The position numbers were made by a program, and so were the translations under genes. This document shows positions 15,097 through 64,000 of a stretch of 64,000 nt of DNA, piece by piece (positions within the stretch are counted from its first letter, which is position 1; every line of letters starts with the position of its first letter). The notes below the pieces were generated by a model, which ran no database searches, had not been told where the DNA came from, and saw only the letters and a list, made by a program, of their open reading frames with translations. Source of the DNA: Leucoraja ocellata (Eukaryota); the NCBI GenBank assembly GCA_036785375.1, contig JAWMAR010000289.1, positions 2,542,001 to 2,606,000 on the forward strand. Reading direction: 5' to 3'.

Positions 15097-15372
15097 GGCA
15101 TAGTGGTGCAGTGGTAGAGTTGATGCCTCACAGGTCCACAGACCCGGGTTCGATCTAACTCTGGGTGCTGTCTTTGTGGAGTTTGTAGATGGGTTTTCTC
15201 TGAGTGCTCTGGTTTCTGCCCATATTCCGAAGACGTACAGGTGTGTAGGTTTAATTGGCTTCAGTAAAATTCTAAATTGTCCCAGGTGTGTAGGATAGTG
15301 CTACTGATTGATGGTTGGCGTGGACTCAGTGGGCCGAAGGGCCTGTTTTCACGCGGCATCTCTAAACTAAAC
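15097..15372 (+). mobile_element. HE1-like V-SINE
   Basis: A box TGGTGCAGTGG, B box GGTTCGATC, V-domain, tail GGGCCGAAGGGCCTGTTTTC...CTAAACTAAAC. Confidence 0.85.
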
Positions 15373-15502
15373 AGTCTGAAGAAGGGTTCGGCCCGAAACA
15401 TTACCCATTCCTTTGCTCCATAGATGCTGCTGCACCCGCTGAGTTTCTCCAGCATTTTTGTGTACCTTCGATTTTCCAGCATCTGCAGTTCCTTCTTGAA
15501 CA
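15372..15502 (+). mobile_element. solo PLE pLTR plus tail, with hammerhead-like core
   Basis: CTGAAGA(15376-15382)AGGGTTCGGCCCGAAAC; near-identical to the right arm at 23753-23884. Confidence 0.85.
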
Positions 15503-15944
15503 CCAATATTTGCCCTTTGTTTGCTCAGTAATGCAGTCCTCATGAGATTGCTGCAACCTGAGGTATTAGCTGACTATTCACTGGATATATTGACTATATT
15601 AAAACCCATTCACATGCACATCTACTCTCTACCTTATCACGAACAGTGATCAGCTGTGGAACTCTGGCTGATTGGTCTTCGCTGACTCAAATATATGCCG
15701 ACCAGCTGTGAGCTGAGATCAGTTAACTATGCACAGATGTGGAGCTAAATCCACAATCTTCTTGTCTCTACATCTTGGACCTCTCCAGCTCAATATAATA
15801 TCAATTGAGCCAAGAGTTCCTGATGACAGACTATGTGAACACACCCATGCAGGGGCACAGACTGGATGCCTATGGTCTGTCTTGAACTACCATTCTTTGG
15901 GATACAGTGATGGTGCAGAGGAAAAATAATTGGCGTAATACTCC

Positions 15945-18094: not shown

Positions 18095-18362
18095 ACTGTA
18101 GAAAGAGAAACAGAGTCAACACGTTGATGTCAACGACTCTTGTTAGTTCTGATGAAAAATCTTTAACCAAAGCATGCGTTGTCTGCGGAGGGCGCTCAGC
18201 ATCACCAAGGACTGCTCTCACCCCAACCATGGACTGTTTACCCTCCTACCATCCGGGAGGCGCTACAGGTCTCTCCGTTTCCGAACCAGCAGGTCGAGGA
18301 ACAGCTTCTTCCCGGCGGCTGTCACTCTACTGACCAACGTACCTCGGTGACTGCCAATCACC

Positions 18363-23470: not shown

Positions 23471-23653
23471 AACTACTTCCATTTACTCAGCATCTTTAAG
23501 GGTAGCAAAATGCTTCAAAGCACTTTGTAGAAAGTAAAACAAAAAATAAGAAATTCATCTTGAACTGCGTATCATGTCAGCTTGGTCAAAGAAGTTTCTC
23601 TGAGGCAAGATCTTAAAGGAGCACCTTAAATAACAGGACTTAAAACTTTAGAA

Positions 23654-23884
23654 CAAGAAGGTACACAAAAATGCTGGAGAAAACTCAGCGGGTGCAGCAA
23701 CATCTACGGAGCGAAGGAAATAGGCAACGTTTCAGGACGAAACCCCATCATCGTCTGAAGAAGGGTTTTCGGCCCGAAACGTTTCCTGTTTCTTTCGCTC
23801 CATAGATGCTGCTGCACCCGCTGAGTTTCTCCAGCATTTTTGTGTACCTTCGATTTTCCAGCATCTGCAGTTCCTTCTTAAACA
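23654..23884. mobile_element. ORF-less PLE fold-back palindrome with TSD
   Basis: ~90-bp inverted arms; hammerhead-like core CTGAAGAAGGGTTTTCGGCCCGAAACGTT; flanking direct repeat ACTTTAGAA at 23645-23653 and 23884-23892. Confidence 0.85.
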
Positions 23885-24428
23885 CTTTAGAAGAAGATGT
23901 GGTTTAGAATAAAACCTTGCACCAAACGTGAGGTAAAATTGAATATAAAAAGCCAAGACCTATCGAACACTTAATTTGTTCAATTTCCATATGTTGGAAC
24001 ATACAAAAGCCACCCTATTCCCATCATAAGAAGGGCTCTGACATTCATTAACAAATGAAACAGGAGGCCAGATCCTGCAACCTCTGAGTGTAAGCCACTA
24101 CAAGGGGGATTTGTGTCACAATATTATTAGCATGACATATTGAGAAGAAAGGGCATTGCACACCTTCCAAAAGGATGTTTGTGTCGTTCTGGGCACCCCA
24201 TCACTGGAAAGATGTGGAGGCTTTGAAGATGATGCAGAAGAAGTTTACCAGCTGTTGGCTGGATTATAAGGTATTAGTTATAAGGAGAGGTTGGATAAAC
24301 TTGATTTGCTGCAATTTATGATAACCATCTCTGCTATCTAAGACACCACCCCACTTTGCTGTCAGCTGCCAACTTACTAATCATGCCTTCTACAATCTCT
24401 TCCAAATCATTGACATGAACCACAAATA

Positions 24429-24521: not shown

Positions 24522-25095
24522 AATCTTCCACCATCACCCTCTGCTTCCTTCCATGAAGCCAATTCTCTAGTCCGTTGGCTAGCTATCTGTGGATCTCATG
24601 CGATCAAACCTTCCAAAGCAGCTTACCTTAATGTGTTAATGTGGAACCTTAACAAATGCCTTGCTGGCATCCACATAGACAAAATGTGTAGGAAAGAACT
24701 GCAGATGCAGGTTTAAATCGAAGGTAGACACAAAATACTGGAATAACTCAGCGGGTCAGGCAGCATCTCTGGAGAGAAGGAATGGGTGACGTTTAGGGTC
24801 CTCACCTTCCACCCCATCAGCTGTCATATACAGCATATAATCCAACATTTTTGCCACCTCCAACGGGATCCCACTACTGGCCACATCTTCCCATCTCCAC
24901 CCCTTTCTGCTTTACGCAGAGACCGTTCCCTCCGAAACTCCCTGGTCAACTCGTCCCTTCCCACCCAAACCACCCCCTCCCCAGGTACTTTCCCCTGCAA
25001 CTGCAGGAGATGCAACGCCTGTCCCTTTACCTCCCCCCTCAACTCCATCCAAGGACCCAAACAGTCTTTCCAGGTGAGGCAGAGATTCACTTGTA

Positions 25096-25200
25096 GAGTG
25101 AACCTCTGCCTCACTTTAGAAACAACAAACTGGCTGCTCAACACCCAGCTTGAGATCTAACTATTCCTTTGGTTTATGTTTGATTCGCACGAAGAAGAAG
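25096..25200 (+). mobile_element. very short LINE 3' end (RTE/RTEX-like) with (GAA)n tail
   Basis: ETTNWLLNTQLEI*, short UTR ending CGAAGAAGAAG; TSD ACTTGTA at 25089-25095 and 25201-25207. Confidence 0.55.
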
Positions 25201-25565
25201 ACTTGTACCTCCTCCAACCTCATCTACTGTATCCGCTGTTCCAGGTATCAACTTCTCGACATCGGTGAGACCAAGCGCAGGCTCGGCAAATGTTTTGCTG
25301 AACACCTCCGTTCAGTCCGTCTTAACTTACCTGATCTCCCGTTGCTCAGCAATTCAACTCCCCCTCCCATTCCCAATCTGACCTTTCTGTCCTGGGCCTC
25401 CTCCATTGTCAGAGTGAGGCCTAGCGCAAATTGGAAGAACAGCACCTCATATTTTGATTGGGTAGTTTACACCCCAGCGATATGAACATTGACTTCTCTA
25501 ACTTCAGATAGCCCTTGCTTTCCTTCTCTATCCCTTCCCCCTTCCCAGTTCTCCCACTAGTCTTA

Positions 25566-25821
25566 AGGGCCTGTTCCACTTGGCGATTTTCTTGGTGACT
25601 GCCGGCGTCATTGACTGATGTATCAGGGTGGCCGAAAGATTTTGAACATTTCAAAATCCAGCAGCGACAATAAAATGTTGCGACACTTGAGGAGACACCG
25701 CACGTCAATACGTCATCACGCTGCGTCACTGCCACATCACGCCGCAACTTTTTTGGTGACCTGATACGTCAGTCAATTATGCCAACAGTCACTGAAAAAA
25801 TTGCCAAGTGGGACAGGCCCT
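25566..25821. mobile_element. MITE, PIF/Harbinger-like
   Basis: ~60-bp imperfect TIRs AGGGCCTGTTCCACTTGGCGATTTT / AAAATTGCCAAGTGGGACAGGCCCT; 3-bp TTA TSD at 25563-25565 and 25822-25824. Confidence 0.85.
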
Positions 25822-27159
25822 TTACTGTCTCCAACTATATTCTATCTTTGTCCTGCCCCCTCCTTGACATCAGTCTGAAGGAGGGTCTCGACCTGAAACG
25901 TCACCCATTCCTTCTCTCCAGAGATGCTGCCTGACCTGCTGAATTACTCCAGCATTTTGTGTCTATCCACATGGACAACATCTGTAGCCTTGCCCTCATT
26001 TATCTTTTTGGTTACTTCTTCAAAAAATCAATCAGATTTGTAAGACATGATCTCTCACCCGTAAAAGCATGCTGATTTACCCAAGTCAGCTCCTCTCTAT
26101 CCAAATGCATACATACTGTATCTAATCCCTCGGAGTCCTCTCCAATATTTTGCCTACCACAGATGTTAGGCTCCCTGCTCTATAGTTCCAGGCTTTTCCT
26201 TGCAGCCCTTTTTTAAATAGAGCCCTTACATTAGCCACCTTCCTGTCTTCTGGGAACCTCACCCGTGTCTAATGATGATTCATATATCTCAGGCTGGGTC
26301 CTGCAAATTCTTCTGTAGCTTCCCAGTGTCTTCTGACATATCTGATCAGGCTTGGGAGTTTTATCTACTTTTGTAGATATGCGGGACATTTTTTTTTACA
26401 CAGAGTGATGAGTGCCTGGAATTTTCTGCCAGGGCTGGTGGTGGTGGCAGTTATAAGAGGAGCATTTAAGAGGCTTTTTAATTAGGCACACATGCAGTAA
26501 ATTGAGGGATGTGTATCATGTGTAGGCAGAGGCAAATAGTTTAACTTGGCATCTTGTTCGGTGCAGACATTGTGGCCTAAATCGCCTGTTTGTATGCCGT
26601 ATTGTTCTATGTTCACTGTATTTTATGTCACACAGAAAAGTAGTTCAATGTGTTTAGTTCAAGCATTCAAACTTTACTCTTGGGAGACTGTTGACACAAT
26701 CTGAGTTGGATTATCATGCATTATAATTTTATTATTTTACAAATGTGAAGCAGGCTTGCATCTCATGGTGAAAACATTGGGTTGAGCAGACCCGAGAAAT
26801 GACCAGCACTTTATGGCTCCATTAATGCTTCTCCGAAAATAGCCACTAAAAAGCGGGCCTGGCAAGTTAATTCTCATGTTAAACTCTGCTGTTTTACATC
26901 AAATCCCCCTCCATTTGTGAGGAGGTATTAATTTTAGACCAGTTAAACTCACAACAAGCAAATATTCACCTCCAGAAGCGATGAATTATTGGCAAGAAAT
27001 TAAGGATTCCCGATAATCTGGTAAACAGATGGTGCACAGCTTTATACAGGTTAAACCCTGCATGTCCTTGCACATACTTGCTTTATCATTGATGGCTATC
27101 GTCTTCAAAGCCAAGACCCTATGTTGTGGAATTCCCTTTCACTTTTCTTTAAACTTGTT

Positions 27160-28135: not shown

Positions 28136-29604
28136 ATCTCTGTTAAGGCTCTACTTAAAACCAGTCATCAGTCCAACAATGATACCCTTCTGTGGTTTAA
28201 TGTCAAACTTCACCCAATAATTGCCTTGCACAAGCTCCCTGGGTTTCTTGCCAATTGGTATTTTTGCCATAGTATGTTAAAATAGCTAAGGATGGAGGTT
28301 AAAAGAGGCACAGAACTTTTATTAGGTTAGTTGTCTAATTCATGTAGAGCAACAGTCAACAAAGTCAATAAATATTGAATAATGTAATTAAGTGGACGTT
28401 CTGATGAAGCTACGTCGTGCTCTGGTCAAGACAGTAGCTAGGGCAGAAGAAAATCTCATGTATTAAAAGACAGTGCAGAGATGAACAAAGCTGCTAACAG
28501 TTCACCAGTTAACAGTGTGAAGGTGCCTGCTTAGACAATGGCTGCTCAGTCTGGAAAGAAGGTACAAGGATTGACTTTCCTCATCCATTATGGATTTGGT
28601 AACCTTTCTGGACTCAGCGAAATGTTCATTCCCCATTGCCCAGTGAAATTAACAGAAAAAAGCAATTAAATATCTAAAGACAGATTTTAACCTGGAAATG
28701 TCATCTTTTATAACTTAAGTAATCACAGCACCTCATTAACTGCAAAATAACTTTAAGCTAATAATGAGTTTAAAGCAGAATCTTCGCAACACAAACAGAG
28801 AATAAAGTATTTCCTTTTAATTACTAGGATCTGGTAATGGAAGATTTGTTTGCTTGTTTACCTTTAAAGCTATTGGCCACTTAGATGTGGAGTTACATGT
28901 CCTGGCCTCGGGCTCCTGCTAGACTGGAGTCTCGGAGCAAGAGCCATATGGCTAAATGACAGCTCATTTGGCAAACAAACAAGCACAATCTCACAATCTC
29001 AACAGCGAAAGGCACTGGAGGTTGATTATTTTAAAAGCATTTTTATTAGGAATATTACAGAAAACATTGCGCAATCACTCTTTTTTTAAGTTGACGCATA
29101 AGTTATTTCATCAAATGCTTATATTCATGTCCCGTAAATTCCTTAACTAACAGAAACACTTGAACGATATATTAAGGATAGTATCAGTTGCCATCTACTG
29201 ATTTCCCTATAACAGTAATTGTTTCTACAATACTGTAATAGTAAACCTGGCTTCCACTAAACGCTATACAAATCTCCAGTTTTATTAATTTGTTTACAAT
29301 AGGAAACATCACTGGCAATGTTGCTATTTATTGTCCATTTATAATTGTCTCTGAAGTAAGGAGGAAACTAAGAGTGTAAAAAGCATACCACCAAACCTCA
29401 ATTTCTACTTCAAAAATCTGTTTAGATATTTAACTGCTTTGTTCTGTTTATTTCACTGGGCAATGGGGAATGAACTTTTTGCTGAGTCCAACACAACTGG
29501 TGTCTATGGTTTGCTTTGAGTTTCTCTGGAAATTTGACTGGGCATCGCCTTATCCTTCTTGGCAATTATTCTTCCCAACTGAGCTCACCAGAATTGCGTG
29601 AGCA

Positions 29605-29910: not shown

Positions 29911-30217
29911 AGAGAGACATAAAATGCTGGAGTAACTGTGGGTTAGGCAGCATCTCTGGAGAAAAGGAATAGGTGACGTTTCGGGTCAAGACTCTTCTTC
30001 AGTTTAAGATTCAGGGAGGGCGAAACTAGAGTTATGGGAAGGTACAGTCTGAAGAAGGGTCTCAACCTGAAAGGTCACCTATACCTTTTCTCCAGAGATG
30101 CTGCTTGACCCACAGAGTTACTCCAGTATCCAGTGTCTATTTCTATGCCTGACCCACAGAGTTACTCCAGTATCTATCTTCAGTTTAAACCACCATTTGC
30201 AGTTTCTTCCTACACAT
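29911..30217. mobile_element. PLE fold-back palindrome with spacer and internal duplication
   Basis: Left arm 29911-30002 is inverted to the right arm from 30045; TGACCCACAGAGTTACTCCAGTATC duplicated; tail on right arm only. Confidence 0.82.
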
Positions 30218-33419: not shown

Positions 33420-33590
33420 AAAACAAACCAAAAAAGTGCTGGAACTACTCAGCAGATCTGGCAGCAAATGTGGAGAGGCAAACAGATTTATAGTTTCAAA
33501 TGATGAAAGGTCAATGGCACAAATATTAACTCTATTTCTCCCTTCAATGATACTGCCTGCCCTGCCGATCACCAGGCATTTTCTGTTTCC
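33420..33590. mobile_element. old PLE pLTR palindrome
   Basis: GTGCTGGAACTACTCAGCAGATCTGGCAGC left arm; TGATGAAAGGTCA core; TTAACTCTATTTCTC...GCATTTTCTGTTT right arm. Confidence 0.6.
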
Positions 33591-39820: not shown

Positions 39821-40187
39821 GGAGAGACACAAGAGACTACATATGCTGGAAACCGGAGCAAAAAAACAAACTACTGGAGGAACTCAATGGGCCAGGCTGC
39901 ATCTGTGCAGAATAAAAGGGCATACCTTTAAAAAGGAAGAGGAATTTATTTAGTCTAAGGGTGGGGAATCGGTGGAATTCATTGCCACAGACGGCTGTGG
40001 AGGCTGTCAATGGATATTTTTAAGGTGGAAATTGACAGATTTGTATGGGTGTCAGTGGCAGAAGAAGGCAGGAGAATGGGGTTGAGAGGGAAAGATAGTT
40101 CAGCCATAATTGAATGACAGAGTAGACTTGATGGGCCGAAAGGCGTAATTCTGCTTCTAGAACTGATAAATTTATGAACTAATGAAC
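39821..40187. mobile_element. pLTR tail remnant (39821-39907, -) abutting CR1 3' end (39908-40187, +)
   Basis: GACACAAGAGACTACATATGCTGGAA...GCATCTGTG then GTGGAATTCATTGCCACAGACGGCTGTGGAGG and CR1 tail. Confidence 0.7.
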
Positions 40188-40213
40188 CAGGGCTGCCAAC
40201 TCTCACGCTTAGA

Positions 40214-41302
40214 GACTTTCAGAAGGCTTTCGACAAGGTCCCACATAAGAGATTAGTATACAAACTTAAAGTACACGGTATTGGGGGTTCAGTATTGATG
40301 TGGATAGAGAACTGGCTGGCAGACAGGAAGCAAAGAGTAGGAGTAAACGGGTCCTTTTCACAATGGCAGGCAGTGACTAGTGGGGTACGGCAAGGCTCAG
40401 TGCTGGGACCCCAGCTATTTACGATATATATTAATGATTTGGACGAGGGAATTGAATGCAACATCTCCAAGTTTGCGGATGACACGAAGCTGGGGGGCAG
40501 TGTTAGCTGTGTGGAGGATGCTAGGAGGCTGCAAGGTGACTTGGATAGGCTGGGTGAGTGGGCAAAGGCATGGCAGATGCAGTATAATGTGGTTAAATGT
40601 GAGGTTATCCACTTTGGTGGCAAAAACAGGAAAGTAGACTATTATCTGAATGGTGGCCGATTAGGAAAGGGGGAGATGCAACGAGACCTGGGTGTCATGG
40701 TACACCAGTCATTAAAAGTAGGCATGCAGGTGCAGCAGGCGGTGAAGAAGGCGAATGGTATGTTAGCATTCATAGCAAAAGGATTTGAGTATAGGAGCAG
40801 GGAGGTTCTACTGCAGTTGTACAGGGTCTTGGTGACACCACTCCTGGAGTATTGCGTACAGTTTTGGTCTCCTAATCTGAGGAAAGACATTCTTGCCATA
40901 GAGGGAGTACAGAGAAGGTTCACCAGACTGATTCCTGGGATGTCAGGACTTTCATATGAAGAAAGACTGGATAGACTCGGTTTGTACTCGCTAGAATTTA
41001 CAAGATTGAGGGGGGATCTTATAGAAACTTACAAAATTCTTAAGGGGTTGGACAGGCTAGATGCAGGAAGATTATTCCCGATGTTGGGGACGTCAATAAC
41101 AAGGGGTCACAGTTTGAGGATAAGGGGGAAATCTTTTAGGACCGAGATGAGGAAAACATTTTTCACACAGAGAGTGGTGAATCTCTGGAATTCTCTGCCA
41201 CAGAAGGTAGTTGAGGCCAGTTCATTGGCTATATTTAAGAGGGAGTTAGATGTGGCTAAAGGGATCAGAGGGTATGGAGAGAAGGCAGGTACAGGATACT
41301 GA
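40214..41302 (+). pseudogene. CR1 ORF2 reverse transcriptase fragment
   Basis: DFQKAFDKVPH, GVRQGSVLGP, FADDTKL, RDLGV, LEYCVQFWSP, RGDLIETYKI, FFTQRVVNLWNSLP; frame extends upstream of the listed ORF to 40214. Confidence 0.92.
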
Positions 41303-41397: not shown

Positions 41398-41654
41398 GAA
41401 ACATGCGTTTGGGAAAATTCTCACGCTGATCACAAATTTCTCACGCTCTGTCGTGAGCAGTTCTGTTATCAATGAAAATGTAAAAACTAATATAAACTGC
41501 ATGGGCCGCGGGTGTTGGAGAGCCGGGGCTGAGGGAGGGATGGAAGCAGAAGCGGCGGCGGGGAGCCGGGGCTGGCGAGTGTTTGCGGGCTGGAGAGTGT
41601 TTGCGGGCTGGCATTGCGCCGCTGTCGTGAGTCTCTGTGCCCGAAGGGACAGAG

Positions 41655-41953
41655 ACTCTCAAAGGGAGGGGGAGAGAGAGAGGGGGTGAGAGGAGAGAGA
41701 GGGGAAGAGACAGAGGGGGAGAGAGTGGGAGACTGAGAGGGGTAGAGAGAGAGGGGTAAGAGAGGGGGAGAAAGGAAGAGAGAGAGTAGAGATAGGGAAG
41801 AGAGAGAGGGGAGAGAGAGGGGGTGGAGAAGGAGGAGCGAGGGAAGGAGAGAAGGGGAGAGGGAGGGGGAGAGAGGGGGAAGAGAGAGTGGTGGTAGAAG
41901 AGAGAGAGCAGAAGAGAGAGAGGGGAGAGAGAGGGGGGGAAGTGAGGTGGGAG
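41655..41953. repeat. GA-rich polypurine low-complexity tract running into an N gap
   Basis: Almost pure G/A for ~300 bp. Confidence 0.9.
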
Positions 41954-42113
41954 NNNNNNNNNNNNNNNNNNNNNNNNNNNNNNNNNNNNNNNNNNNNNNN
42001 NNNNNNNNNNNNNNNNNNNNNNNNNNNNNNNNNNNNNNNNNNNNNNNNNNNNNNNNNNNNNNNNNNNNNNNNNNNNNNNNNNNNNNNNNNNNNNNNNNNN
42101 NNNNNNNNNNNNN
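41954..42113. other. assembly gap (160 N)
   Basis: Run of N. Confidence 0.98.
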
Positions 42114-42584
42114 TTCTCATGCATTGAGTGAGCGAATTTCGCATTTTGCCAAATTCTCACGCTGATCACAAATTTCTCACGCTCAGAAAATCTGAGATCA
42201 ATGAAAATTTCAAAACTCATATCAACTGCATGGGCCACGGGTGTTGGAAACGGCAGGAACATATGTGGATGGGGAGCGGGGCTGGCGAGTGTTTGCCGGG
42301 CTGGCGAGTCGTCAGAAGCGTCGCGCCGCAACTCAGGCCATGGAGCAGCCTCAGTGCAAGAGTCCCGGGTCGTCGGAGGCTTCAGAAACGATGCGCCACT
42401 GCCGTGAGAGTCTCTGTGCCAAATTCGCTCAGATGATCAGGTTGGTTCATCATGGAGGACAACCAGTGGCTGCTGGAAGTAAGTACCAATTACTGGGTAG
42501 AAATGGTGGAAGATAGTGGACTTCAAATGGGAATGATTGGAGAAAGCATCCTGCTTGCCTGCTAGATTTTCACTTACTGCAACT

Positions 42585-43419: not shown

Positions 43420-44276
43420 GTTCAGACGGAGAACACTGCCAGATGTGAGCGGGGAACTGAGGCCAGTTGTCCATGATGTCTGGATCCCAATCCTCAGCGC
43501 TTCATGTTTCGGAGTTGGCTAATGTTATTGATTTGTAATTAGCCTGATTTGTAATTAGTTGACAAAACCTTAATTTATCAATCTGGAAGAATTATTTCCT
43601 TCAGTTAAATATTGGTAAGGTAACACTATTGTCATTTGCCACTCAACTATTATGTTTGTTTACCTCACTGACTATTTTTAACCCTCCCCCCCCGCCATTC
43701 CTTTGACAGGTTGAATAGAAATGTCCCCAATCTCGTTGTTTTATTAATTGAACAAGTAGATGAACATCCTCAAGGTGTGTAATCAGATGGCAACTGATTC
43801 AGATGCGATATTTAAGAGCTTGTTCAAAGAAGAGGCATATTTTAAAGTTGTGACAAGAGATATTTGTAGGGGAATGTGTGAGGAGATTATTATTTGTCTT
43901 TAGTTTTAGCTTGAACCAGGACATCTGAAGATTCAAAGTTTAATATAGTAATTGTACTGATACTGACCACAACCAACCACGTAATGAATATCCTCCATTC
44001 CGAAGGTTTTACTTTTATGATGCAATTTAAACTTCACTTGGATTTCAATCACTTCAATGTGAAAGTAATTGGGAATGGGGAGCATTGGAACAAAAAATTG
44101 CCCTCGGTACATATTAACTGTAATATAATAATGTATGTATGTTGGTAGGTGCAATCAAAACAAAGATCTTTTTATCATTGTTTAAGAGGGAACTGCAGAT
44201 GCTGGAGAATCGAAGGTTACACAGAAAAGCTGGAGAAACTCAGCGGGTGCAGCAGCATCTATGGAGCGAAGGAAAT

Positions 44277-44312
44277 AGGCAACGTTTCGGGCCGAAACCC
44301 TTCTTCAGACTG
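44277..44312 (-). ncRNA. inverted copy of the hammerhead motif
   Basis: Reverse complement of 45343-45378. Confidence 0.7.
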
Positions 44313-44366
44313 ATCAGGGGTGGGGGTGGGTGGGGACAAGAAAGGGAAAAGGAGGAGTAGCCGGAA

Positions 44367-45230
44367 GGCTATCTGGACTACACTTCTTCCCACCCTGCTT
44401 CCTGTAAGGACTCCATCCCCTACTCCCAATTCCTCCGTCTACGCCGCATCTGCTCCACGGATGAGGCGTTCCACACCAGGACATCTGAAATGTCCTCACT
44501 ATTCAGGGAACGGGGGTTCCCCTCCTCCACCATAAATGAGGCTCGCACCAGGGTCTCTTCCATACCCCGCAACACTGCTCTCTCTCCCCATCCCCGCACT
44601 CGCAACAAGGGCCGAGTCCCCCTAGTCCTCACCTTTCACCCCACCAGCCGTCACATACAAAAAATAATCCTCCATCAGTTTCGCCACCTCCAACGTGACC
44701 CCACTACTCGCCACATCTTCCCATCTCCCCCCATATCTGCCTTCCGCAAAGACCGCTCCCTCCATAACTCCCTTGTCAATTCTTCCCTTCCCTCTCGGTC
44801 CACCCCCTCCCCGGGCACTTTCCCTTGCAACCGCAAGAGATGCAACACTTGTCCCTTTACCTCCCCCCTCGACTCCGTTCAAGGACCCAAGCAATCGTTC
44901 CAGGTGCGACAGAGGTTTACCTGCATCTCTTCCAACCTCATCTATTGCGTCCGCTGCTCTAGATGTCAGCAGATCTATATCGGTGAGACCAAGCGGAGGT
45001 TGGGCGATCGTTTCGCCGAACACCTCCGCTCGGTCCGCAATAACCAAGCTGACCTCCCGGTGGCTCAGCACTTCAACTCCCCCTCCCACTCCGCCTCCGA
45101 CCTCTCTGTCCTGGGTCTCCTCCATGGCCACAGCGAGCAGCACCGGAAATTGGAGGAACAGCACCTCATATTCCGTTTGGGGAGTCTGCACCCCGGGGGC
45201 ATGAACATCGACTTCTCCCAATTCTGTTAG
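44367..45230 (+). pseudogene. PLE ORF C-terminus: RT thumb, Cys linker, GIY-YIG endonuclease
   Basis: Open frame YLDYTSSHP..IPYSQFLRLRRICS, CNRKRCNTC, NLIYCVRCSRCQQIYIGETKRRLGDRFAEH, VAQHF, RKLEEQHLIFRL..GMN. Confidence 0.92.
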
Positions 45231-45342
45231 TCCTTGCTGTCTCCTCCCCTCCCTCAGCTCCCCTGCTGTCTCCTCCCACCCTCCAGCCTTCCGGCTACTC
45301 CTCCTTTTCCCTTTCTTGTCCCCACCCACCCCCACCCCTGAT

Positions 45343-45378
45343 CAGTCTGAAGAAGGGTTTCGGCCCGAAACGTTGCCT
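45343..45378 (+). ncRNA. minimal type I hammerhead ribozyme motif in pLTR
   Basis: CUGAAGA 45347-45353, extra A, stem II GGGU-UUCG-GCCC, GAAA 45367-45370, palindromic ACGU stem III, GUU cleavage triplet; stem I weak. Confidence 0.7.
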
Positions 45379-45599
45379 ATTTCCTTCGCTCCATAGATGC
45401 TGCTGCACCCGCTGAGTTTCTCCAGCTTTTCTGTGTAACCTTCTTTTTATCATTGTTGTGTTATGAATACCACAGAAAATATTATGTACTCTCAATATCA
45501 CATTTAATAGAATAATATTGATTAAATATATAGTTATTGGACTTTGCATTTCAGAAAAGTCTCAGCTGAGAGGAAGACAGCAAAATACTGAAAATATTG

Positions 45600-61320: not shown

Positions 61321-62948
61321 ACGTAGGATGTGCAGCACCATAAGTATATCCATCCCTTTGGGCCACGCCACTGAACCCTCTATGTCGTGTATCTATGACG
61401 TGTCCAGGTTGATGCGTTGGTGGAATTGGCCACTGGAGGCCCCACAGTGGCCAAGTGCGCAGATCAGACACACGCTGCAGTGGTATGGAGCAGCAGAGCG
61501 GTTTTGGAGGGTATCAACAACAAGGTTGGCACAGACATGATGAGCCAAAGGTCCCATTCCTGTGCTCTGCTGAAATTAATCAACCGGTCAGGCAGCATTT
61601 GTGAAGAGAGAACCACCAATGTTTCAAGTCAGTAATTTCTACCCACAACTGGAGTTCTGTTCTACTTCCTTCCCCCAATTGTAATCTGATCTACTAAAGT
61701 GCCTATAATAGAGCATTTGCAAAGTGGCAGAGATCAAATGAAAGCCAGACGCTTCAAGGCTGTTCAAAAATAAAGGTGATCACCAAATTGTTGTGCTTCA
61801 CATAAGCAGTCTAGATGTACAATGCTAAAATTGGCCAAAAGCTTAAAAATCAACAAATCTTACAATGTTTATTTCAGAACAGTAAATGCTGGTGTTCCTT
61901 GTTTTGTCAAAGTTTGGCATTCCAACAAAGCAAGGCTGAGAAAGACACATGCACAAAGAATCAACCAATCCAGATTTGGCAACAACGCAGTCCATTTTTA
62001 CTTTCCCGTAAATGATGCGACAAGATCAGAAAGAACTTCCTGAAGTGAGAGAGAACGAAAAAAAACCCCGTTAATCAAACAAATTCAAATGCAAATTGTT
62101 GCTTTCTTCACTGCTACTTAAGAACTTTATCCTGAGACTTGTAATCCTCCACCCACATCACTAGACCACCGTATGTCGCTCTGCATTCACCAGAAGGACT
62201 GTTTGGGGCTGTGGCTAATGTGGTTATGGGAATCAAAGCAATGACAAAATATACGGACACTGGGAAGGGAAAGTTTGCTTTTTACACATCTGTATGTTGG
62301 AGAACAGCTAATACTGAAGACCTGGCTTGGAGTCAAATAATGAGTTGAAATTGTTATTTCTGGCCAGTACTCCTTTTTTTTGTTTAAATGGGCTGTCCAT
62401 TTTTATTATTTAAATGGAACAGGAATAAATATTTCTAGTGCCTGTGGTCTGGTTCTCCTCCAGGTTTAAAGGCCACACATACTTAGGGATTCCAAATCCC
62501 AATCTACCTTTGGTTTGCAAACTGTAGTCTCTCTGCTTATCACTAAGAAATTAAGCATTTAGTTAATTAACACCCAGCTACCTGCCCAACCCTGCACCCC
62601 TTAATAACACACACAGCAGTAACTTGTAGCCAGTTTATCTTTAGATTTTTCCTCGGTTCCAGGGACTTTCCAGTACTTCTTGTTCTGATACAGAGATTGG
62701 AATAAACTAATAAATGACTTTGATGTTGAAGGAGCAGCCACCCTGCAATACAAACAGCAAATGTGGCTGCTATTGAGAGCAGTGTATGAACTAGCAGTAC
62801 AACTTGTTATTCATTAACATTGCTACCACATATCTTGCTTCAAACAGGGGAATCAGCCTTCTGGCGAATGGTGTTACTATGGTGTAAAACCCAGATTATG
62901 GTAACAGTCCCACCAGTGAGGGAAGTTGAAGGCAACAGATAATGTTAA

Positions 62949-63137
62949 CTCAGTAGGTCAGACAGCATCCCTGGAGAACATGGATAGGTGACATTTTGGG
63001 TTGAGACCTTCAGAAGAATGGTCTCAACCCAAAATGTCACCTATTCACGTTCTCCAGGAATGCTGCCTGACCTTCTGAATTACTCCAGCACTTTGTGTCC
63101 TTTTATGTATTAACCAACATCCACAGTTATTTGTCTC
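62949..63137. mobile_element. ORF-less PLE fold-back palindrome with 13-bp TSD
   Basis: ATAGGTGACATTTTGGGTTGAGACC / GGTCTCAACCCAAAATGTCACCTAT; TSD CAGATAATGTTAA at 62936-62948 and 63138-63150. Confidence 0.88.
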
Positions 63138-64000
63138 CAGATAATGTTAAATGTCTGTCCTTCTCATCAGTTGATAATACTAATTAACATTAATATGTGA
63201 CAGCAAACAAACCCAAAAGGTAAAATTGTTTTGAATATTGTAACTATGCAGCTTTCTGGACATTAAAATAGAATTTTCCCTGAAATATTTCAGTTTCAAT
63301 TGCAAATTATGATTCAATTCCAAAACGACTCCAGTAAATAGCAGAGTTATATTTAAACCAGCTCAAGAATTAATGCATAATCAAAATGTACCTTGATGTG
63401 ACGTCTGTCAACAGTCTGTAATATTTTCCCCATACACTCCATTAATTACCTTTGGTTTGCACTTGACCCAAGTGAGCAAGTGAAGTGAACAGAGCAGAAG
63501 CTGCGAGGATGATGGTTCCCTTACAGGGGTTCTTGCAGTCACAAAGCTAATGTTATGATAGATATGAACCATTTTTTTAAAACTAAATACTCCAGTTCGG
63601 GCTGACGAACCATACATCCAATGATACTTGTGCAGGAAGGAACTGCAGATGCTGGTTTGGATCAAAGCAAAAGTCCTTTCATTCACAATTTTTTAAATGG
63701 AAATAAGTTCTGAAGGGATGTCAAACATCAACGGCAGGCTAATAAATATCGATTAACTGGACTCTGCCTTCCTGGACAACCAAAAAGACTGAAAAAATAA
63801 AAGGAACTCTTTCGGGCTCTTGAGAATTCATCACCACATTCAATCAGTGTGGCCACTTGGTCACTTCAAAGGTCAACAGTTAGTAGTAGTCTAGCCAGGG
63901 ACTCGTCCTCTGGTCTTAAAGAAGGAATAGAAGTCCTTGGCATGAAAGTCGTTTTCACCAGATAACTATATATCCTACAGTAAAAATTATTATTGGTCCA

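Follow-up and report, generated by a model that had tools for sequence, protein, structure and literature searches.

EN+ Penelope-like insertions have been described with an inverted 5'-truncated pLTR, a one-sided tail of 30-40 bp and a TSD (available text of PMC8557442 and PMC3846280). For anole Poseidon, two RT start sites flank the tail and both strands are extended (PMC11167929). The hammerheads of Penelope-like elements (PLEs) are mostly single motifs, with opposite-strand pairs lying 100-700 bp apart (available text of PMC4209133), and the D. virilis Penelope has an internal Inr/DPE promoter (available text of PMC2377424). The cited PLE papers leave open how the inverted ends and the one-sided tails come about. 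We analyzed a 64,000-nucleotide stretch of DNA from Leucoraja ocellata, hereafter the window, together with related copies elsewhere in the assembly, and asked how an insertion at 23645-23897 compares with these systems.

A fold-back insertion made of two pLTR stubs

The insertion consists of two head-to-head stubs, each the last ~100 nt of the pLTR, bounded by a TSD. An initial annotation had described it as a ~230-bp insert of two inverted pLTR arms with the hammerhead core in the right arm and a direct repeat at its ends, and our results agree: the self-inverted score was 140, compared with at most 19 after shuffling, and the TSD, ACTTTAGAA, was found at 23645 and 23884. The left copy (23645-23658, plus strand) is exact over 9 nt, extends to 13 of 14 nt and shares 2 nt with the arm end; the right copy lies at 23884-23897 (plus strand). 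We numbered positions (x) from the tail-less boundary, x = 0, with the tail at +1 to +34, the start of the core at -96 and the predicted hammerhead cut before -68. The inverted tail-less arm (23657-23745, minus strand) runs from x 0 to -88 and breaks off within hammerhead stem II, without CUGAAGA. A 7-nt unstranded junction (23746-23752) connects it to the sense arm (23753-23851, plus strand, x -98 to 0), and the CUGAAGA..GAAAC core (23755-23780) is in the right arm only. The sense arm continues into a 34-nt tail (23852-23885, plus strand) with the same sequence as the 34 nt directly downstream of the full-length element's 5' pLTR, and its partner arm is tail-less, as the claim of a one-sided tail of ~34 nt had it. 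Locus L002, which duplicates the window locus across 3.2 kb and is a duplicate or allelic copy of it, has a plainer join with C-run microhomology. Because of this simpler join, the center of the window copy was likely changed after insertion.

We read a minimal type-I hammerhead motif by eye at 23755-23783 (plus strand), following the definition in the available text of PMC4209133. The conserved core, a 3-bp stem II, GAAA and the palindromic CG at 15.2-16.2 are present, with a predicted cut after 23783, and helix I of this copy is broken by a U-U at its first pair. An Rfam search over the window gave no hammerhead match; it returned only miRNA-hairpin matches below the gathering score, which we rejected as hairpin artefacts. 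The predicted RNA fold is a single long hairpin of -148 kcal/mol, in which opening the ribozyme core would cost 17 kcal/mol. On this folding model, the hammerhead is predicted to be an inherited passenger that is unable to fold inside the hairpin.

A second insertion of the same family pairs a tailed short arm (44179-44370, minus strand, x +33 to -158) with a tail-less long arm (44367-45443, plus strand, x -1076 to 0), within a 16-nt TSD at 44167 and 45442. As had been noted, its tail-less arm stops at the ACCTTC boundary seen in the first insertion. The copy is not ORF-less as first described, for the long arm encodes the RT C-terminus and part of a GIY-YIG endonuclease. A genome search with this insertion found relatives that are young, with 98-100% identity, as well as L096, a full-length copy that has a 752-nt 5' pLTR, a 34-nt tail, a 1217-aa ORF and a tail-less 3' pLTR; the tail of the insertions is the 34 nt just downstream of this 5' pLTR. 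The L096 ORF matched RVT_1 with an E value of 8e-5, below the Pfam cutoff, and contains the motif YIDD, a Cys linker and IYIGET, the GIY-YIG domain being identified from motif alone. As judged from its sequence, L096 appears to have a single ORF with RT and C-terminal GIY-YIG between pLTRs, as in EN+ Penelope-like elements. The Cys-rich RT-EN linker is Neptune-like and may place the element in the Neptune clade. The ORF (L096:3714-7367) also has a long low-complexity Pro/Ala/Gly-rich stretch ahead of the RT domain. We conclude that the source of the insert is the pLTR end of an abundant young Penelope-like element with RT and GIY-YIG. A 31-nt word from the arm occurs 83,702 times in the assembly, duplicated haplotypes counted. 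The first 3 Mb of contig C1 contain a large mirrored duplication (e.g. L117/L159 and L121/L155), and genome counts include such duplicates.

The other copies that had been listed in the window varied in how well they fit. The copy at 62949 proved to be an older-subfamily fold-back with the expected 13-nt TSD (62936-63150, unstranded). Those given at 29911 and 1855 are fold-backs, one older with a spacer (29912-30215) and one older and lopsided (1861-1994), both unstranded; a search for a TSD at their ends found none. At 33420, 49130 and 56585 there are pLTR-like remnants, and the fold-back part of the claim was not upheld, with scores of 15, 20 and 21 inside the shuffle range of 19-20. The supposed copy at 18095 scored 10 and had no pLTR match over background. 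The window also contains a solo tailed arm of the young subfamily (15372-15503, plus strand), which was absent from the initial annotation and begins at the same 5' start site, and an older long inverted pair (24681-25965, unstranded) with the tail on its left arm and an 8-nt direct repeat at its ends. Separately, an 82-nt inverted pair (28609-28690 and 29409-29490, 718 nt between) has no likeness to this pLTR and is probably a different element. Long stop-free frames lie at 40178-41302 (plus strand, 374 aa) and 41441-42436 (minus strand, 331 aa), the latter crossing an N-masked stretch.

One tail, variable junctions and concordant arms

We collected 99 inverted pairs from loci L001-L255 and the window and kept 81, leaving out 18 that were duplicates or too close to a locus edge; 45 source loci of the 81 pairs had been selected via their center. 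Mirrored duplicates on C1 were collapsed by flank for pair and arm counts. In all 81 deduplicated pairs the tail was on exactly one arm, which by chance would be expected with a probability of ~1e-28 at the tail rate of solo arms (22/62). These 81/81 pairs show the inverted 5'-truncated copy with a one-sided 30-40-nt tail that is a trait of EN+ Penelope-like insertions. A TSD was present in 78 of the 81 pairs compared with 2 of 81 when flanks were swapped, and its length was 12-18 nt in 71 of the 78, with a whole range of 8-20 nt. Most copies therefore have a TSD and a fixed arm boundary, as proposed. Several TSDs share the word GGTTTGTAGG (L306, L312, L319, L323, L023, L026 and L225), which suggests a preferred target inside another repeat. 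The end rule holds for long insertions as it does for short ones; of 13 long pairs, 11 have the tail on their shorter arm. Tailed long arms exist, ruling out that the tailed arm is always a short 5'-pLTR product.

The two arms of a locus also agree in sequence. Across 70 pairs, minor alleles matched between arms in 93 of 139 cases (67%), compared with 16 +/- 2.6% (maximum 23%) after shuffling, although this concordance could result from later arm-to-arm conversion. The three commonest end haplotypes are common to short and long arms (14/9, 14/8 and 6/5). Among 68 mini pairs we found 37 distinct junctions, and recurrence occurred only at micro-palindromes, whose centers were seen in 25 and 4 of the 68; the commonest center occurs in both polarities relative to the tail (T in 16, A in 12), and untemplated bases are present in many centers. 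The initial annotation had called for mapping breakpoints and arm ends, with random centers and fixed outer ends pointing to de novo formation. The outer ends are indeed fixed; the centers are not random, as arm 5' ends accumulate at a single site and joins favor local micro-palindromes. Since arms share subfamily variants and junctions differ between loci, we conclude that each window-type copy likely arises de novo rather than being copied as a unit. A MITE, which would have matching terminal inverted repeats, a short TSD of fixed length and replication as a unit, is ruled out by the one-sided tail, the variable 8-20-nt TSD and the 37 junction types in 68.

Taken together, we favor a reading in which the window insert was made anew at insertion by two RT primings on opposite target strands, with a probability of roughly 0.78. 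The element protein, probably as a dimer, would nick both strands ~15 nt apart, and one cDNA would start at each of two RT start sites, those measured for anole Poseidon, with one element as the source of both cDNAs. Both would stop early, most likely by run-off at the RNA 5' end just before the hammerhead, a step to which we give about even odds. Joining of the cDNAs would follow, either by microhomology, for which local micro-palindromes are often used, or with the addition of a few untemplated bases. For the window's copies, the earlier suggestion of a stereotyped two-step PLE integration is thus supported by the single tail, the TSDs, the arm concordance and the varying junctions.

The 5' stop ahead of the hammerhead

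To describe the 5' ends, we took 80 regions around the first 100 arm matches, which yielded 94 unique arms, 62 of them solo. Of the 61 arms in this sample that reach -95, 38 end at -104 to -95 with a peak at -98, compared with 9 of 23 ending in the next 395 nt upstream, and 27 of the 38 are solo. We also assembled 58 short solo arms from the 94-arm sample and from loci in the -98 and -99 start sets; 46 of the 58 have a TSD, and their upstream flanks are unrelated. Genome-wide, 38,840 arms reach -96, with starts at -98 in 6,270 and at -99 in 3,816. Because 20,813 arms reach -100, of which 64-78 per 100 among the matches listed run on into element sequence by hand count, we estimate that ~60% of arms end inside this 9-nt interval. 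Older subfamilies with different upstream sequence have the same boundary base. The arms are therefore short because their 5' ends pile up 2-3 nt ahead of the hammerhead core, solo copies included. A few arms (4 of the 94) start instead at the predicted hammerhead cut, x -68; arms starting exactly there are found at L120 (both arms), L123/L153 and L192, and are a possible trace of cleaved RNA templates.

Two further classes of copy bear on the nature of this stop. The tandem insertions L245, L262, L280 and L281 each consist of a short pLTR piece and, ahead of it, another piece that contains the ORF start; in three of the four, the two pieces start at the same position. Such double copies halt twice at one site (-97/-98 in L281 and L245, -78/-78 in L280), which suggests a template end. 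However, of 19 copies extending across the ORF start and as far as -92, 16 run past -104 and 3 stop at the site; not every template, then, has a hard end at -98. These 16 copies rule out a strict transcription-start hard stop at -98, and the run-off model must be supplemented with read-through templates or a homologous jump.

We examined cap-G and RNA evidence for the stop. There was no excess of G before starts at -99 (25/100). A modest excess before -98 (40/100) had a position control that failed, being dominated by the GGAA cassette described below, and G was present in 15 of 28 junctions with extra bases, a count in which duplicates were not collapsed; the cap-G signal is therefore weak. 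Raw RNA reads from a related organism cover the mini-element on both strands and are dominated by dispersed copies. Swamped by genomic copies in this way, they revealed no site where many molecules begin among the matches listed. The sequence at the 5' stop, TCAGT, is a motif that we take to be initiator-like. That the stop is an RNA 5' end at this motif, just before the hammerhead, is in our estimation about evenly balanced.

The strongest competing explanation also assumes de novo origin and attributes the -98 stop to a barrier, namely a G-quadruplex-prone run on the cDNA, or to a splice-related site with a pyrimidine tract and YAG. Four G-runs do lie on the cDNA strand just beyond -104, young and old subfamilies alike have a pyrimidine tract with CAG or TAG ahead of the core, and the intron end of D. 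virilis Penelope maps at hammerhead helix I (available text of PMC4209133). The old subfamilies, however, stop at the same base with other upstream sequence, and a constant barrier should also halt the ORF-start copies, just 3/19 of which halt. With regard to splicing, the 58 short solo arms have no upstream exon in common, no strong splice donor motif was found in the pLTR, and no splice joint was seen among the matches listed in the RNA reads of the related organism. We therefore consider a barrier or splice origin of the stop unlikely.

Another possible origin of the inverted arm is snap-back, in which a palindrome allows self-priming; this was put forward for the Penelope elements of Adineta (available text of PMC3846280). 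Palindromes at inverted junctions, both in our data and in that text, and the concordance of arms would fit snap-back. In the long pairs, however, the tail is on the shorter arm in 11 of 13 and absent from the longer, a pattern that one cDNA cannot yield, and the one-tail rule requires two start sites; snap-back is accordingly improbable. A similarly low probability attaches to the idea that long inverted insertions collapsed later by deletion of the center between micro-palindromes. This would explain why micro-palindrome centers recur, but the 5' pile-up is present in solo arms too, which have no partner, and many centers carry untemplated bases.

The earlier alternative of a self-propagating ribozyme-hairpin family, in which transcription and retrotransposition would act on the mini-palindrome as a non-autonomous unit, is very improbable and for window-type copies largely refuted. 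An exact 35-nt center is shared by 587 loci, one arm asymmetry recurs (a CpG C>T at x -77 in 7 of 57 mini pairs and 0 in reverse polarity, although the window copy and loci chosen because they resemble it make up 4 of the 7), and Adineta pLTR sequences alone can mobilize cargo in trans (available text of PMC3846280); against this, the 587-locus center is a micro-palindrome already built in and seen in either polarity, the two outer ends lie at fixed boundaries of priming, the variants in the arms track long-copy subfamilies, and the ribozyme core would have to be opened at the energetic cost given above.

A clustered GGAA-loop hairpin and comparison with known systems

A junction of another kind, absent from the window, joins two young arms by a GGAA loop. 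It was seen in 21 of 30 loci fetched with a control pattern and is exact at 1,970 loci in the genome. Among the 100 matches listed, 48 are on contig C1, all in 2.5 of 26.7 Mb, 0 are on C2-C4, 45 are in 3.4 Mb of C5 and 7 are on C6. The clusters (L353-L395) occupy C1:20.1-22.6 Mb, C5:14.8-18.2 Mb and C6:17.1-18.1 Mb, unlike the ordinary palindromic center, which is evenly spread across the same contigs. We read 41 of these loci (21 on C1, 15 on C5 and 5 on C6), with ~37 distinct flanks by eye; some are segmental duplicates. The hairpin is ~70 nt long with a stem of up to 34 bp, is nested in pLTR copies of varied age, some with their own TSDs, and is often accompanied by a ~33-nt duplication. 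Beside it, 66-nt tandem units occur in 19/21 loci on C1, 10/15 on C5 and 0/5 on C6; these repeats are pLTR-derived and lack the ribozyme core. A captured spacer is private to the C1 cluster (11/21 versus 0/20 elsewhere, p ~2e-4) and a point variant to the C5 cluster (7/15 versus 0/26 elsewhere, p ~3e-4). The loci are GC-richer (0.48 versus 0.44). An automatic TSD count gave 8/41 with poorly placed ends, which yields no rate, and no empty site was seen among the 41 loci read.

With one idiosyncratic junction shared by many loci whose flanks are unrelated, the hairpin looks to be copied as a unit. Because descent is local at the megabase scale, these data point to DNA-level copying into homologous neighbors. 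We tentatively propose, at slightly less than even odds, that the GGAA hairpin is a selfish DNA palindrome homing into Penelope pLTR remnants, whether old or young, that reside nearby. It has no RT start site of its own and would drag captured flanks and 66-nt repeats along. Unusually local retrotransposition may instead account for these loci. The claim of a self-propagating hairpin family thus seems to hold for this lineage outside the window, except for its ribozyme part, as the GGAA junction has no ribozyme core. A narrow check of the literature gave no match to the hairpin. If it homes by recombination it would be an unusual non-coding mobile unit, and the clustered hairpin is the part of this work most worth following. 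For the window-type copies, the one-tail rule, which has no exception, and the sharp 5' stop seen across tens of thousands of young copies make exact predictions for the existing in vitro system, namely that each start site gives one cDNA, the two being on opposite strands, with run-off near the ribozyme.

Compared with EN+ Penelope-like insertions (available text of PMC8557442 and PMC3846280), the copies described here have in common the head-to-head arms, the tail at one end, the TSD and a palindrome or microhomology at the inverted junction. They differ in that both arms are cut to ~100 nt, one tail is found in 81/81 pairs and the TSD is mostly 12-18 nt, whereas that of Adineta is 8-10. The 5' pile-up is sharp here, and the supplements of those papers may show something similar. 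With Poseidon_Ac (PMC11167929) they share a tail that is flanked, at the pLTR-ORF junction, by two RT start sites; in that system both strands are cut and extended and the hammerhead is dispensable for insertion. Here, by contrast, the tail lies in the 5' UTR before the ATG and the RT-EN linker is Cys-rich, and neither inverted pairs nor 5' ends are dealt with in the Poseidon_Ac paper. The minimal hammerheads of PLEs in the available text of PMC4209133 have the same core, extra base before stem II and palindromic 15.2-16.2, although in our copies helix I is at most 2 bp, broken in the window copy, and stem II is 3 bp. Non-LTR retrozymes (available text of 10.64898/2026.07.22.740005) are also non-coding and pLTR-derived, but they are head-to-tail with a hammerhead per unit, and we rejected this class for the window copy, whose arms are head-to-head with one lacking the core. 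We conclude that the window element represents, in minimal form, a known kind of Penelope insertion, whose one-tail rule and 5' stop are useful for mechanism, and that the GGAA-loop class is what is new here, the window-type layout having already been published.
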